Source of the DNA: a virus
Direction: 5' to 3' (one strand)
IMG/VR virus record: IMGVR_UViG_3300037499_000265
Span: 1 to 64,000 of that record
Length of the DNA stretch: 64,000 nucleotides
In this document: positions 43,868 through 50,454 of the stretch, one piece after another
Numbering within the stretch: the stretch's first letter is position 1
Layout of the letters: each line of letters begins with the position of its first letter
Program-made: the position numbers and the translations under genes
The notes under the pieces: model-generated
Databases searched by the model: none
Told to the model about the DNA's origin: nothing
Seen by the model: the letters and a program-made list of their open reading frames with translations, nothing else

Positions 43868-44391
43868 TCACGTTGCCGAGAAAGAAGGCTATCACCGCAG
43901 TCCCTATCAAATCTGTGAAAAAGGTGGCGAAAACCACTGAGGTCGTCGTGCCGAAGGTGATCGAGGATGAGGATCCGATCTTGGCGGCACGTTCCATCCT
44001 GTCCGCCAGAGGCCTCTACGGGATCCAAGACGCCATCACGTACCTCGAGGGCTTCGTGTGGCGCCATCCCGATATCGATCCCTTCGTCGACCGCAGCACC
44101 GAACGAGCAGCGATGTCGAGCTACCAGACATGGCTGTCGACAGACAACGGCCAGCAGGACGAGGTCTTTCTCGACACTCACTGGCAACGCTGGGGCGTGC
44201 TCGAGCGCAAGGCCGTGTGGCTGCGGCGATGGCTCAACATCGTCGATGGCGAAGCCGAGCCGCCGACTCATGAGCCGAGAGACGAGCCGCGGACCTATGA
44301 AGAGGCCTTCGCGCAGGCTCGTAAAGAGGGCTGGCTGCCGCCGGCCGACCAAGTGGAAGAAGCGAGGCAGGCACTTGAACAGCAACTCTGA
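43864..44391 (+). CDS. hypothetical protein
   Basis: GTGA overlap. Confidence 0.6.
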   Translation: MITLPRKKAITAVPIKSVKKVAKTTEVVVPKVIEDEDPILAARSILSARGLYGIQDAITYLEGFVWRHPDIDPFVDRSTERAAMSSYQTWLSTDNGQQDEVFLDTHWQRWGVLERKAVWLRRWLNIVDGEAEPPTHEPRDEPRTYEEAFAQARKEGWLPPADQVEEARQALEQQL

Positions 44392-44572
44392 AATCATCAT
44401 CGTCGTCCGCCGGGGCGACCGGAAGATCGAGTTCAAGCAGACCATCGAGGACGAGGAACTCCCCTCGTTCAAGAGCATCGCCAACGAGGTCGCAGACCTT
44501 GCCGTATCGGTTCGCAAGCACCTCGAGTCAGCCGATCCCACCGACTCTTCCATTCCTCCGCCGCCGTTCTGA
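44375..44572 (+). CDS. hypothetical protein
   Basis: TTG start; ends PPPPF. Confidence 0.5.
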   Translation: MNSNSEIIIVVRRGDRKIEFKQTIEDEELPSFKSIANEVADLAVSVRKHLESADPTDSSIPPPPF

Positions 44573-45066
44573 TGCGAGTCGTCACAGGCCGCGAGTACTC
44601 CGGTCCGGCAGGCCGCGCTACCGAGATCCTTCGTCAAGGCGAGCCTGACCGGCCGGATTGGGTCGCGACGGTGTCGTGCTGGTTCCTCGAGTGCCCCGGC
44701 CAGTCACCGGCATGGTCCCACTACGTCATGTGGGTCATCCACCTGCGGGATCTCGACGATGTTCCGCCGGCGCATATCGAGATCCCAGGGGCCACTCACG
44801 AGCTGGTTGTGGCCGCGCTGGATCCTGACTACAACCCGAAGGCGCTGAGGCTGTCCCCCTGGCGATTCCTGCGCCCGCTGAACGTCCAGGAGCAGGTCCA
44901 GCTACCGAACGACGAAACGGCCCGGAAGCTGGCCAGTATCGCCGTTCAGGCCGTTGTGAACGGAACCCTTCCGGCAGAGCCGGCTCTGTCCGGCGCGGTC
45001 GAGCCGTGGCGAACGTCGCTGATCAGGACGTCGGCCCATCTACGCGGCGAAGAACACGCATCGTGA
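44572..45066 (+). CDS. conserved actinophage hypothetical protein
   Basis: QSPAWSHY...IHLRD...ATHE...ALDP. Confidence 0.7.
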   Translation: MRVVTGREYSGPAGRATEILRQGEPDRPDWVATVSCWFLECPGQSPAWSHYVMWVIHLRDLDDVPPAHIEIPGATHELVVAALDPDYNPKALRLSPWRFLRPLNVQEQVQLPNDETARKLASIAVQAVVNGTLPAEPALSGAVEPWRTSLIRTSAHLRGEEHAS

Positions 45067-45317
45067 AGATCTCCTACCAGGTCGGACTCGCCTTCGACGA
45101 AGCTGACGATGTCGAGGCTCGTACGGGATACGAGGAGCTGGCCAACCTGTCGGACTACACCGCCGAGAAACACGAGCTGTTCGCTTACCTGCTGATGATG
45201 GCCGTGCGGCTCGAGTGGCGGATGGCAGACCGGTCCAGGGAGTACGAACTGGACCGTCAGCGACGCGAGGAACGCCGACGGGAACGAGCTGAGAAAAAGG
45301 CTGCCGAAAGTACTTGA
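45063..45317 (+). CDS. hypothetical protein
   Basis: GTGA overlap. Confidence 0.55.
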   Translation: MKISYQVGLAFDEADDVEARTGYEELANLSDYTAEKHELFAYLLMMAVRLEWRMADRSREYELDRQRREERRRERAEKKAAEST

Positions 45318-45342
45318 CACGATCGTCAGACCCCGATAGTCT
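45314..45342 (+). promoter_or_regulatory. sigma70/HrdB-type promoter of the ncRNA array
   Basis: TTGACA-N17-TAGTCT. Confidence 0.7.
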
Positions 45343-45501
45343 CGTAGGAGTAGGTCGGGTGGGGGTCAAGCCGCTTCGGTCCGGATGACTACAACTCTCC
45401 GGTCGTCGTGGTCCCCGCCCATCCGACGAAGGAGCCGACGAGCTGAAACACACTTGCCAGACCGCCAGCGAGGCGAGAAGGTGGGTAGACAACTCCACAG
45501 C

Positions 45502-45568
45502 GTGGCACAGGAGGTTCCTCCATCATCAAGCTCCGTCAGGGGCTTTCCGCAGATTTACCTCCCGCCAC
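45502..45568 (+). repeat. structured repeat unit 1
   Basis: GTGGCACAGGAGGTTCCTCCA-N33-TACCTCCCGCCAC. Confidence 0.9.
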
Positions 45569-45698
45569 GTCTTCAACAACTTCATAGATGTGCTGCGCCG
45601 GGTAGGCACGGCTGGACGGTTGGCCGGAAAGCTTCAGCGACCTAGTCGCTCGAGGTGAGTAGGTGGGACCCGGTGCAGTGCTTGACAACTGAACAGCG

Positions 45699-45763
45699 GT
45701 GGCACAGGAGGTTCCTCCATCAACGCTCCTCTCGAGGAGCTCGAACAGACTACCTCCCGCCAC
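45699..45763 (+). repeat. structured repeat unit 2
   Basis: GTGGCACAGGAGGTTCCTCCA-N31-TACCTCCCGCCAC. Confidence 0.9.
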
Positions 45764-45781
45764 CTCTGACAACTTCATAAT

Positions 45782-45837
45782 GTGGCATAGGGGGTTCCTC
45801 CACAAACCACCATGTAGGTATCCATACCTCCCGCCAC
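45782..45837 (+). repeat. structured repeat unit 3
   Basis: GTGGCATAGGGGGTTCCTCCA-N22-TACCTCCCGCCAC. Confidence 0.9.
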
Positions 45838-45854
45838 ACTGACAACTTCATAAC

Positions 45855-45910
45855 GTGGCACAGGGAGTTCCTCCACATCCGCATTTGGTTGCATATATAC
45901 TCCCCGCCAC
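45855..45910 (+). repeat. structured repeat unit 4
   Basis: GTGGCACAGGGAGTTCCTCCA-N22-TACTCCCCGCCAC. Confidence 0.9.
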
Positions 45911-45920
45911 GCCCGACGAT

Positions 45921-45957
45921 GGGCGCGGTTCTGTGCGACAGACCGCGCCCGTTTTTT
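45921..45957 (+). terminator. intrinsic terminator between RNA array and ORF
   Basis: GGGCGCGGT(T)CTGT-GCG-ACAGACCGCGCCC then GTTTTTT. Confidence 0.85.
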
Positions 45958-45995
45958 ATGTTTGATCATGTTAGACCGACGAGAAGGAGGCAACA

Positions 45996-47876
45996 ATGCG
46001 ATCCACTATCCGACTGTTCAAGGCGCTGCCGGTGTCCGGCACCGCGGGCGGTCTGCCGACAGATCCCGCGTTGGATCGGCTCACCCTGCGCCGTGGGTTC
46101 GTGTTCGACTCTAGTCTCGTCGGCGAGTACCGCAGTGTGGACCGTCTGATCTCCATGGTTGACGAGGTGTACGGCCGGGGCTCGGTCGAGCTGAACACCG
46201 CGTTCCACAAGTCCTTCGCCAAGGTCCGCGACGCCTCGATCCAGCAGCTGGTCTTCGAGCAGATCGTCCACTACTTCACCACCTACGGCGCAGAGCACTT
46301 CGGCGTGTACGACGAGAGTTCAGTCTTCGTTCCCGGTGAGCACCTCGACGCCCCGGAACTGTCCGAAGGCATTCGCGTCGTCGTCATCCGCGGGCTGACC
46401 AAGGCCGAACTCAAGACCGAGCTGCTGACGCTCGTCTCGTCCGGGATCGCCCTGGCCGAGGACACCATCGCCGACGTGCTCGACGTGGCCGCCTTCGTCG
46501 GCCTGGACGAGGCCGATCTGTCCGCCATCACCAACCGAGAGGTCCGGGCCGCGCTGTACGACCATCTCGGCATCATGCCGTCCGACCCGCAGGAGTTCCT
46601 GCGGTTCCTGGTGTACCGGGCGACCGGACAGACCCAGGTGGTCCAGAACGACTCCCTGCTCAACACTCTGCGCTCCCGGGACAACCTCGACCTGGTCCGG
46701 TACTTCCGGACGTATGAGGCTCAGACCGGCCTGCGCCGGCTCGGTGAGATCTTCCTACGGTACCGGCTGGTCTTCCTCGCCATGAAGACCAACACGGTCC
46801 TGCGCACCTACATCAACCGGATCCGTCGGGAGGCCAAGCGGTCCCACAAGCCGATGCCCGAAGACGTCCTGAACTCGGTCACGATGCACCTCAAGCGCGG
46901 CGATCTGGACTCCGGCGCGGTGTCCCAGGCGCTGGCGACCGCCAGTGTGTTCCGCAAGGCCCGGCTGGCCTACGCGCTGCGGTACCGGATGTCCGGAGCC
47001 GACGGGATCGTCTATCGGGTGCGCAACGGGCGCGCGTACGCCACCGACTTCAGCTTCCCGCTCGATATCGACGTCGAGACTGTTTTCGGCGAGGTCATCT
47101 CCTCGATCGCTGGCGACATCACGCCGAAGGTAGACGGGAAGAAGATCTTCATCCCGGCCGGACTGGCCTATGGCCTACCCTCGACCGAGAAGCAGTTCAT
47201 CGGGCACCTGCCGGCGGGGACGTCGGTGACGGTGCCGGACGGGCTAGTCGTCGGCGTGCACTGGGAAGACCAGGGCGATCACCGCATCAACCTCGACCTG
47301 TCGCTGTCCAACATCGCTGAGAAGATCGGATGGGACGGCTACTACCGGAGCAGCGGGGACGACGGAATCTACTTCTCCGGCGACCTCACCTACGCTCCGC
47401 CGCCGAATGGTGCCACCGAGGTGTTCCGCATCGGCGCCAGTGCGTACGGAACGTGGCTGCTGAACCTGAACTACTTCAACTACAACGAGGACATCGACGT
47501 CCCGTTCCGGATCCTGGCCGGACACGCCTCAGCCGTGGAGAAGAACCACGTCGTCGACCCGAACGCCCTCGTCGCGAACGCTCACGCGAGGATGGACGTG
47601 CACCAGCGGACACTCGGGATCGTCGTGTCGGGCTTCACCGAGCGACAGTTCTTCTTCGCCGGCGCCGACATCGGAGGTGGGATCACGTCCCGGCACACCC
47701 AGCGTGCCGACGTGGCGATGAAGTACTTCGAGACCTACTACGTCAACGCGATCCCACTGAACGACATCCTGGTCTCCGCCGGCGCCGAGCTGGTCGTTGA
47801 CGCTGCTGACTCGGACCTGGATCTGTCGCCGGAGGCCGTGGACAAGAACACGTTCCTCGAGCTGCTGACGACGTGA
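45996..47876 (+). CDS. 626-aa protein: long alpha-helical (ROT/TROVE-like) region plus C-terminal TerD-like domain
   Basis: AGAAGGAGG RBS; NTAFHKSF...EQIVHYFTTYG; GVHW...INLDLS...IGW...FSGDLTYAPPPNGATE; family assignment from memory. Confidence 0.7.
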   Translation: MRSTIRLFKALPVSGTAGGLPTDPALDRLTLRRGFVFDSSLVGEYRSVDRLISMVDEVYGRGSVELNTAFHKSFAKVRDASIQQLVFEQIVHYFTTYGAEHFGVYDESSVFVPGEHLDAPELSEGIRVVVIRGLTKAELKTELLTLVSSGIALAEDTIADVLDVAAFVGLDEADLSAITNREVRAALYDHLGIMPSDPQEFLRFLVYRATGQTQVVQNDSLLNTLRSRDNLDLVRYFRTYEAQTGLRRLGEIFLRYRLVFLAMKTNTVLRTYINRIRREAKRSHKPMPEDVLNSVTMHLKRGDLDSGAVSQALATASVFRKARLAYALRYRMSGADGIVYRVRNGRAYATDFSFPLDIDVETVFGEVISSIAGDITPKVDGKKIFIPAGLAYGLPSTEKQFIGHLPAGTSVTVPDGLVVGVHWEDQGDHRINLDLSLSNIAEKIGWDGYYRSSGDDGIYFSGDLTYAPPPNGATEVFRIGASAYGTWLLNLNYFNYNEDIDVPFRILAGHASAVEKNHVVDPNALVANAHARMDVHQRTLGIVVSGFTERQFFFAGADIGGGITSRHTQRADVAMKYFETYYVNAIPLNDILVSAGAELVVDAADSDLDLSPEAVDKNTFLELLTT

Positions 47877-48493
47877 GTCTTCCCCAGCCCCACGAGGGGA
47901 TCCGGGGGGTCGAGCGAGATGAAGCACTTCTCTCGCTCGACCCCTCGATGATCGGCGTCCGTGAGCTGGTCCGGATCCTCGCCATGCACGTGTACAGCGC
48001 GACACTGGTCGGCTACCCGGCCCCAAAGGTTCAACGCATGAACGACTGGATGCGCAACCCCCGGATAGGCGACCTCGTCGTCGAGGAGTCCACGTCCTAC
48101 TACCCGGTCGAACGCAAGCGGGACCGCTTCCCAGAACAGTGGCCGTTCACCCGGATGGGCTATCTGATCACCGTCCGGGAGGAGTGGGAACAGACCGACG
48201 AGCAGTGGCAGTCCGAACTCGCCGAACAACGCGAGTGGAACGCCAAGCACGGCTTCGACGGTCTCGACGAGGAACGCATGATCGAACCGAGAGCCTGGTA
48301 CATCCAATACGGACCGGACCCCGCCGACGTCGCCCGCTGGGAGGACTGCTCATTCATCGCCGTGCCCACCGAGATCCGCCAGTTCGACACTCTGACCGCC
48401 GCGGAGGACGGTCAGGTGACCATCACCCGGCAGAGCCTGGTCGACAACCTTGCCGACACAGGCTTCACGCTACGAAAAGACAACAGGAGTTGA
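47873..48493 (+). CDS. hypothetical protein
   Basis: GTGA overlap; typical codon usage. Confidence 0.7.
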   Translation: MSLPQPHEGIRGVERDEALLSLDPSMIGVRELVRILAMHVYSATLVGYPAPKVQRMNDWMRNPRIGDLVVEESTSYYPVERKRDRFPEQWPFTRMGYLITVREEWEQTDEQWQSELAEQREWNAKHGFDGLDEERMIEPRAWYIQYGPDPADVARWEDCSFIAVPTEIRQFDTLTAAEDGQVTITRQSLVDNLADTGFTLRKDNRS

Positions 48494-48498
48494 TCGTT

Positions 48499-48744
48499 AT
48501 GCCCGCACCGCACATGCCACCCGGCGAGTACACCCAGAAGGCCATCTACTGGGGCGAGAACCCTGATCAGAGCCCGTGGGACCGTGGGGAGCAGAGTGTT
48601 CACATGTTCCACGAACTGACAGGCGACGACCCGCGTCAGCAGGAGCGCCGGATAGTCAGCAGTGTCGCTGTGGATGGCGTCACGTCACGAGTCTTCCGCC
48701 GGAAGGTCACCGTTGGGCCGTGGGAGGAAGTACCTCAGGCGTGA
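48499..48744 (+). CDS. hypothetical protein
   Basis: AGGAG RBS; RRKVTVGPWEEV. Confidence 0.6.
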   Translation: MPAPHMPPGEYTQKAIYWGENPDQSPWDRGEQSVHMFHELTGDDPRQQERRIVSSVAVDGVTSRVFRRKVTVGPWEEVPQA

Positions 48745-48995
48745 CCGTGTACGGACCTGGCATGCACCCCAACTGGATCTACAACTTGATCACCGCGATC
48801 GAGGAGTGGGAGGACATCCACTCTGGCGCTCACGACGAGTCGGTAGACCAAAGGATGGCCGCCTGCTTTGATGCCGAACTGAACAAGATCCCGCAGGAGG
48901 TTCGCAGGACGGCTCGGGCCATCGCCGAGTATCGTCGCAACCAATACAGAGAGGGCTCCAATGGCCAAGCTGCACGCGGTTTCGATAGCGGTTGA
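48741..48995 (+). CDS. hypothetical protein
   Basis: GTGA overlap. Confidence 0.55.
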   Translation: MTVYGPGMHPNWIYNLITAIEEWEDIHSGAHDESVDQRMAACFDAELNKIPQEVRRTARAIAEYRRNQYREGSNGQAARGFDSG

Positions 48996-49758: not shown

Positions 49759-50454
49759 TCACGACGCCTCGCTTTCAAGCGGTGCCGGACATACCAGGTA
49801 CGTCCCAGCCTCTAGACCGATCAATGTTGCTTGTGGCTCGGTCAAGGTCCACCTGACTGGGGGCGAGTCGTCAGGGCACGTCGGCCCAGGTGCTCCATTC
49901 TCGCCATCTTGACCATCATCACCGTCTTCACCAGCTGGTCCGGCCGGTCCAGTCTCGCCTTGTGGCCCAGCAGGACCAGTGATGGATTCACCGGCCGGGC
50001 CTGGCTCACCTTGTTCACCTTGCGCGCCAGTGATCGCTTCACCCAACGGTCCGGGTATGCCTTGTGGGCCAGTCTCGCCGGGTTCGCCAGCCGGTCCGGG
50101 TGGTCCTATCGGGCCAACAGGTCCCAGTGGTCCAATAGGTCCGCGTGGGCCTGGCTCACCCTGGTCGCCCTGCAGTACGACGACTTCACCGACGTCATCG
50201 GCTTGATCTTCGGGCTCCGGAACCTCGGGCTCCTGACCCAGTCCTTCGAGCTGGTTTCGGAGTGTCCGAACGTCTTCAGCGAGCAGTTCTCGTTCTGCTA
50301 CACTCTGGGCCGATCGCTCTGAAGCACGATCAGCTCTGCCAGACAGGTAGAGAAAGCTGACCAGATACAGGATGGCCAGTAGGACGATGGCGCTGCCGAC
50401 GATGATCTGAGGCAGCCATGGCCGCCAACGCGGCTCCTGAGCGTGCAGGGACAT
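49759..50454 (-). CDS. membrane-anchored collagen-like protein of the lysis cassette
   Basis: N-terminal TM, coiled coil, ~25 Gly-X-Y triplets, C-terminal Cys pair. Confidence 0.8.

Follow-up and report, generated by a model that had tools for sequence, protein, structure and literature searches.

A phage RNA array coupled to a TerD-fold protein: a candidate counterpart of the Ro60/Y-RNA particle

The locus described here lies on the plus strand at positions 45314 to 47876 of the window, the initial 64,000 nt of a complete viral record of 127,505 bp (IMG/VR record IMGVR_UViG_3300037499_000265). It comprises a promoter, an array of small structured RNAs, four of which are built on a common two-helix basal stem termed the handle, an intrinsic terminator, and a gene for a 626-residue protein with a TerD fold. 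A sequence-only reading of this DNA had proposed that the locus encodes a phage ribonucleoprotein analogous to Ro60-Y RNA. The phage record has direct terminal repeats and a GC content of 62%. Because of this high GC content, and because the closest relatives are found in Rhodococcus and Mycolicibacterium, an actinobacterial host is suggested rather than established. Coordinates without a genome or locus prefix are those of the window.

The RNA array and its expression signals

Upstream of the gene lie about 650 nt without a credible open reading frame (ORF), where a non-coding RNA array of about 600 nt had been claimed. This stretch (45336-45960) folds as separate modules in both the minimum free energy and the centroid fold, with an energy of -256 kcal/mol and a z-score of -5.0, and contains four handle-bearing hairpins within 45501-45911. 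The two-helix handle has the consensus 5' GGC-AYA-GRNNGU-UCCU ... UAC-NNYC-C-GCC 3' and carries variable tips. In the fold of each unit, the outer helix is followed by an AYA/C internal loop and a 6-bp inner helix, which leads into an open loop with a small hairpin at the tip. The units of the window share 5' GUGGCAYAGGNNGUUCCUCCA and 3' UACNNCCCGCCAC around variable tips of 22-33 nt, and all four are recognized by R1, a covariance model of the handle. Unit 1 (45501-45569) has a 33-nt tip with a GC hairpin, scores 38.6 bits (E 2e-8) and folds at -27.5 kcal/mol (z -4.1), while unit 2 (45698-45764) has a 31-nt tip with a palindromic hairpin and scores 38.8 bits (E 1.8e-8; fold z -3.7); both units were outside the R1 training set. 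The inner helix of unit 3 (45781-45838; 44.5 bits) is predicted to be GGGGGU/ACCUCC with one G.U pair. That of unit 4 (45854-45911; 46.3 bits; fold z -3.1), which also appears in the repeat table, is GGGAGU/ACUCCC, a double compensatory change relative to GGAGGU/ACCUCC in units 1 and 2. With the filters off, no further degenerate handles were detected in 45200-48200.

The units are unevenly spaced (197, 83 and 73 nt) and preceded by similar, AU-rich spacers (GACAACUUCAUAA), which are unusual in this GC-rich phage genome and are likely processing sites. The same spacer precedes a long hairpin with a 14-bp basal stem at 45589-45682, which lacks the handle, gives no R1 match with the filters off, and may be a different member of the array. 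Further upstream, a structured 5' leader element without handle is predicted at 45354-45428 and matches neither R1 nor Rfam. A search of the window against Rfam at E<=1 returned only spurious miRNA and riboswitch matches. A guide-RNA role towards the phage's own genes is unsupported, since no stretch of more than 12 nt in the four tips is matched or complemented elsewhere in the phage genome (best E 0.13).

The array is separated from the gene by an intrinsic terminator at 45918-45959, formed by a hairpin (45918-45953; -27 kcal/mol, z -5.9) followed by UUUUUU, in close agreement with the strong U-tailed terminator first placed at 45921-45957. Among 72 related viral loci, such a terminator is present in only one, and the median gap from the last unit to the start codon is 27 nt. 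The layout expected to yield an excess of RNA over protein thus exists here, as had been claimed, but this design is a local refinement, special to this phage, because it is not shared by the related loci, where the RNAs are probably excised from the leader of the gene itself. The ORF (45996-47876) starts with the ATG at 45996, 5 nt behind the Shine-Dalgarno sequence AAGGAGG (45984-45990), and encodes 626 residues with no cysteine, as the sequence-only reading had described.

The promoter proposed at 45314 is also present, with TTGACA at 45314-45319 and TAGTCT at 45337-45342 separated by 17 nt. The upstream ORF 45006-45317 has its stop codon within the -35 hexamer. The window contains six promoter-like copies of the pattern TTGACA-N16-18-TANNNT, each on the plus strand (6208, 10971, 25632, 40201, 45314 and 63340), against 0.26 expected, and none of 100 shuffles reached six. 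Since all six share the extended form TTGACAC...GATA(C/G)T, also written TTGACAC...N...GATA(C/G)T(G)T, the site at 45314 is one of the phage's regular promoter family; the six are probably its set of host-sigma promoters. The sole promoter-like site after 45342 (45872-45901) is located within unit 4, ahead of the terminator, which leaves the ORF without an obvious promoter of its own.

Coupling of the handle RNA to the protein gene across genomes

Far from generally lacking upstream arrays, homologues of the gene carry the handle in 73 of 84 viral and 72 of 80 cellular loci. The viral handles, found with a simple motif scan in loci of 24-63% GC, lie upstream of the gene and on the gene strand. 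The cellular loci comprise 80 independent bacterial and archaeal homologue loci (881 kb, searched on both strands), which gave 147 R1 matches, all of them on the gene strand and nearly all within about 350 nt upstream of the gene. Upstream DNA is missing in five of the eight unmatched loci. Over the whole 127.5-kb phage, R1 matches the four units of the window only. The genomic coupling is strict: in a set of 151 genomes from one bacterial family, the RNA occurs in exactly the seven that also encode the protein, next to its gene, and both are missing from the other 144.

The system is spread over 193 viral contigs and 285 species genomes, and includes two cultured cyanophages, the Synechococcus phages S-CRM01, where four units are located directly before g174, and S-CBWM1. 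The number of units per locus ranges from 2 to 8, usually 2-4 and up to 7-8. Most tips are short hairpins, including all four in the window. In three loci (L003, L049 and L085) the array is downstream of the gene. The RNAs form a family with a conserved structure. In 118 short units drawn from many loci, pairing holds in 94.7% of cells, compared with 72.8% in shuffles, and the flank pairs 2-69 and 3-68, which were not used for unit selection, show 51 and 64 double changes, respectively. For a partnership of RNA and protein predicted from sequences, this comparative evidence is about as strong as possible.

The longer tips of several relatives resemble bacterial Y RNAs. Tips from L014, L015, L008, L012, L013 and S-CRM01 match the Rfam YrlA model (RF02553) at 35-49.5 bits, below its gathering threshold of 69 bits, several of them over model positions 1-114. 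Some combine a T arm with a closed acceptor stem and a D arm, that is, the permuted tRNA mimic that defines the bacterial YrlA Y RNAs (PMC4201824). The RNAs of the window give no match to the YrlA model at E<=1, and the Ro60-binding motif GNCGAAN0-1G is absent from the handle consensus GGCAYAGRNNGUUCCU. In one relative (L074:2632-2747) the handle encloses a complete tRNA (Rfam tRNA, 56.8 bits; ARAGORN 4-nt anticodon, ctat); this tRNA would be synthesized as a handle-RNA tip. A lone tRNA-shaped gene to which ARAGORN assigns a 4-nt anticodon (gaac) was observed in the phage itself, outside the window (G000:C1:103468-103542).

The gene is also found next to RtcB. In Chryseobacterium, 29 of the 31 fetched loci contain an RtcB paralogue, three handle RNAs and the gene, with a WYL/WCX regulator upstream. 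RtcB adjoins the gene in at least five further lineages, including Tenacibaculum and L029, L033, L092 and L109. A Bythopirellula chromosome encodes a canonical Ro60 with TROVE and vWA_Ro60 domains (L115:9681-11330, minus strand) at a distance of 1.8 kb downstream from the TerD-type gene, and a PcfJ-like gene separates the two. Arrays of tRNA genes enclose the gene in S-CRM01, S-CBWM1 and about 20 of 60 viral loci. The phage studied here encodes an RtcB of its own as well as a tRNA array, both outside the window at a distance of 44-68 kb from the locus. The tRNA array comprises seven genes at G000:C1:89693-90876. The RtcB RNA ligase gene (G000:C1:114218-116260) is one open frame of 705 residues, in which an insertion of about 300 residues that may be an intein separates Pfam model positions 50 and 49.

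Protein structure and relation to known systems

The AlphaFold2 model of the 626-residue protein (predicted local distance difference test 84, predicted template modelling (TM) score 0.83) comprises an α-helical domain (residues 1-335), a β-hairpin and a long helix (337-380), a β-sandwich (approximately 400-580) and a helical tail. Structural matches to the model identify residues 400-580, approximately, as a TerD fold, and Ro60 entries give the longest structural alignments. The helical domain displays many invariant Arg, Lys and His residues, and the N-terminal part harbors the invariant motifs NxxFHKS and EQxxHYxTTYG. No sequence match to the protein was found in Pfam, PHROGs, PADLOC or the PDB, using either the single sequence or a profile. 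The family has at least 1392 representatives at E<=1e-3, each representing one 50%-identity cluster. A close relative is the protein P0002, with 80% identity, and a pattern scan of viral contigs for close relatives retrieved more distant phages only. Full-length structural relatives were also observed in two cultured phages, Campylobacter virus IBB35 (BFVD H6SUA9) and Lactobacillus phage LpeD (A0A291I9M6), with Foldseek E-values of 1e-15 to 5e-14 and TM scores of about 0.5.

The system shares several features with the Ro60/Y RNA particle. In both, a large helical protein, here predicted to bind RNA, is encoded beside one or more small RNAs, and these RNAs combine a conserved bulged basal stem with a variable or tRNA-like upper module. 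The bacterial Y RNAs YrlA and YrlB (RF02553; Chen et al. 2014, PMC4201824) are encoded in the Salmonella rsr-yrlBA-rtcBA operon (PMC7790460, PMC4201824), of which the RtcB neighbor in relatives of the present gene is reminiscent. Occurrence in phages is common to both as well, since a Ro60 has been reported in Thermus phage phiLo (PMC12135203). The two nevertheless differ. A TerD β-sandwich takes the place of the vWA/MIDAS domain of Ro60, whereas true Ro60 proteins scanned alongside do match vWA_Ro60. The handle GGC-AYA-GRNNGU-UCCU is unlike the Ro60 sites GGUCCGA or GNCGAAN0-1G, and the RNAs form arrays of 2-8 units with mostly very short tips. Some genomes carry both Ro60 and the handle/TerD system. 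No TROVE domain (PF05731) was detected in the protein with Pfam at E<=1, nor anywhere in the phage, while control genomes give matches. Comparison of two alignments of the protein (A1 and A2) with a TROVE alignment (A4) using hhalign gave probabilities of 0.05-0.11%, although with only six TROVE rows a very remote homology could escape.

Kinship with the Prok-RING_4-type family had been suspected, and this lead is a good one as far as the body of the protein is concerned. The MXAN_6230/SCO0854 RING family (NF041916, Prok-RING_4) shares the predicted body (ESM Atlas TM 0.60 over 507 residues) and a TerD-like part, with a hidden Markov model E-value of 2e-8 at residues 404-479 and 33% identity over 96 residues to a Myxococcota member. 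The cysteine-free protein has no RING finger, however, and it scores 32.9 bits against a family cut-off of 600; no handle RNA was found within 1.5 kb of the RING-family genes in 12 Myxococcota loci. With respect to TerD proteins of solved structure (3ibz, 2kxt and 2qz7), the protein differs in that its TerD fold is fused to a 400-residue helical part, lies outside any ter operon and is coupled to RNA genes. No Pfam TerD (PF02342) sequence match was obtained at E<=1.

The genes on either side of the locus (43967-45317 and 47873-48995) belong to no Pfam family, and in no fetched locus are they conserved beside the gene, so that the module consists of the RNA and the protein only. A megablast search of the locus against phage records gave no match. 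A strong GC-rich hairpin without a U tract is located just past the ORF stop (47899-47953, plus strand), inside the next ORF (47873-48493), and had surfaced as a spurious miRNA match. On the minus strand, a 231-residue ORF (49759-50454) contains collagen triple-helix repeats (Pfam E 7e-14) and probably encodes a fibre or tail protein.

A proposed Ro60-like particle and its alternatives

The coupling of RNA and protein, the covariation of the handle, the YrlA-like tips, RtcB neighbors and tRNA arrays of relatives, the phage's own RtcB, the TerD fold, the long alignments with Ro60 structures and the invariant Arg, Lys and His residues of the helical domain all argue for the analogy with Ro60-Y RNA that had been drawn from the window. 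We therefore favor, with better than even confidence, the reading of the locus as a Ro60/Y-RNA-like ribonucleoprotein module that is built on a different protein family; its binding, processing and biological role are those we infer below. Given its recurrence across hundreds of phages and bacteria, the pair is probably an undescribed counterpart of the Ro60/Y RNA particle that handles damaged or misfolded RNA. Transcription from the promoter at 45314 would produce a precursor of about 600 nt ending at the terminator (45959), and cleavage in the AU-rich spacers would then release four hairpin RNAs of about 55-70 nt together with one or two other structured pieces. All hairpins share one basal handle, which consists of an outer helix of about 6 bp, the AYA/C internal loop, an inner helix of 6 bp whose sequence is free, and a UCCU...U loop that does not vary. 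The protein itself would be made via read-through or from a weaker start. Its helical domain is expected to bind the handle in the way Ro60 binds the stem of Y RNA, and the tips would serve as adaptors or gates through which the particle reaches other RNAs or enzymes. For the TerD domain, in the position of the Ro60 vWA domain, the binding partner may be a cation, a nucleotide-like ligand or another protein. During infection, such a particle would most likely survey, repair or degrade structured RNAs that have been damaged, tRNAs in particular, together with RtcB-type ligation.

The same particle could serve a different biological purpose. If protein-held handle RNAs displayed tRNA-like or hairpin tips that sequester or misdirect the anticodon nucleases of the host and other RNA-targeting defences, they would act as tRNA decoys in counter-defence. 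The mostly viral distribution of the family (193 viral loci; nearest ESM Atlas clusters also mostly viral), the high variability of tips that mimic tRNAs or are whole tRNAs in relatives, and the location of the gene in phage tRNA arrays are consistent with this role. On the other hand, the tips of the window are not tRNA-like, there is no PADLOC match or known anti-defence link, and in many Chryseobacterium species the pair forms a stable operon with RtcB on the chromosome, which rather suits housekeeping or stress repair. We consider the decoy role unlikely, but a live alternative. The possibility that the RNAs are substrates of the protein and not its cofactors appears quite improbable. The protein would in that case process, modify or chaperone handle-tagged RNAs, including handle-made tRNAs; the whole tRNA inside the L074 handle would be one example, permuted tRNA-like tips would require processing, and the invariant NxxFHKS and EQxxHYxTTYG motifs could form an active site. 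Structure searches with the protein found no enzyme fold, however, and most tips are short hairpins without an obvious product.

Two further explanations bear on the arrangement of the array and the gene. The short distance between the last unit and the start codon (median 27 nt, always on the same strand) would fit a cis-acting autoregulatory leader, in which the hairpins are sites in the gene's own 5' leader for repressing translation or transcription, like those of ribosomal-protein leaders, and do not act in trans. We regard this as improbable, as such a leader accounts poorly for 2-8 units per locus with tips as elaborate as tRNA mimics, for units located downstream of the gene in L003, L049 and L085, or for an array that has an independent promoter and, in the window, is divided from the gene by a strong terminator. 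The order of promoter, repeated RNA, terminator and protein had itself been recognized as that of type III toxin-antitoxin loci (ToxIN), with a protein of ill-fitting size. In a ToxIN-like system the protein would be a toxin neutralised by repeat RNAs that it processes. This layout was found in the window only, the terminator being conserved in a single one of the 72 loci. The units are not identical but have the handle alone in common, with uneven spacing, and the protein is a large one (626 residues) with no nuclease fold and no PADLOC match. The pair is moreover common in large lytic-type phage genomes, and a ToxIN-like function is highly improbable.

Taken more broadly, the Ro60-like reading would make this system a second widespread class of Ro-like ribonucleoproteins, a generalization to which we give an even chance. 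Its protein would be unrelated to TROVE by sequence or diverged past recognition, with TerD instead of vWA, and its universal handle would carry interchangeable cargo, such as hairpins, permuted tRNA mimics or whole tRNAs. In phages and some bacteria, it would serve as a modular adaptor in tRNA/RNA repair or decay, or in counter-defence. A literature search on Ro60/Y RNA, TerD, RtcB and Prok-RING in phages, outside of which some older Aravind-group papers fall, retrieved no description of the pair; that group's jumbo-phage survey gives separate mention to ROT/TROVE proteins and to stand-alone TerD in phages. The RNA is absent from Rfam 15 and the protein family from Pfam, and the finding would add a new family to each.

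Few RNA-protein surveillance particles are common to animals and bacteria, Ro60/Y RNA being one of them, and how the RNAs direct Ro60 is still debated. If our reading is correct, the locus represents a parallel system with a much simpler, sharply defined handle and natural handle-plus-cargo arrays. Its presence in cultured phages (S-CRM01 and S-CBWM1), and beside RtcB in culturable Chryseobacterium, makes direct tests possible. The role of the RNA tips, the replacement of the vWA domain, and the use of such particles by phages to keep tRNAs working under host attack would thus become testable questions.

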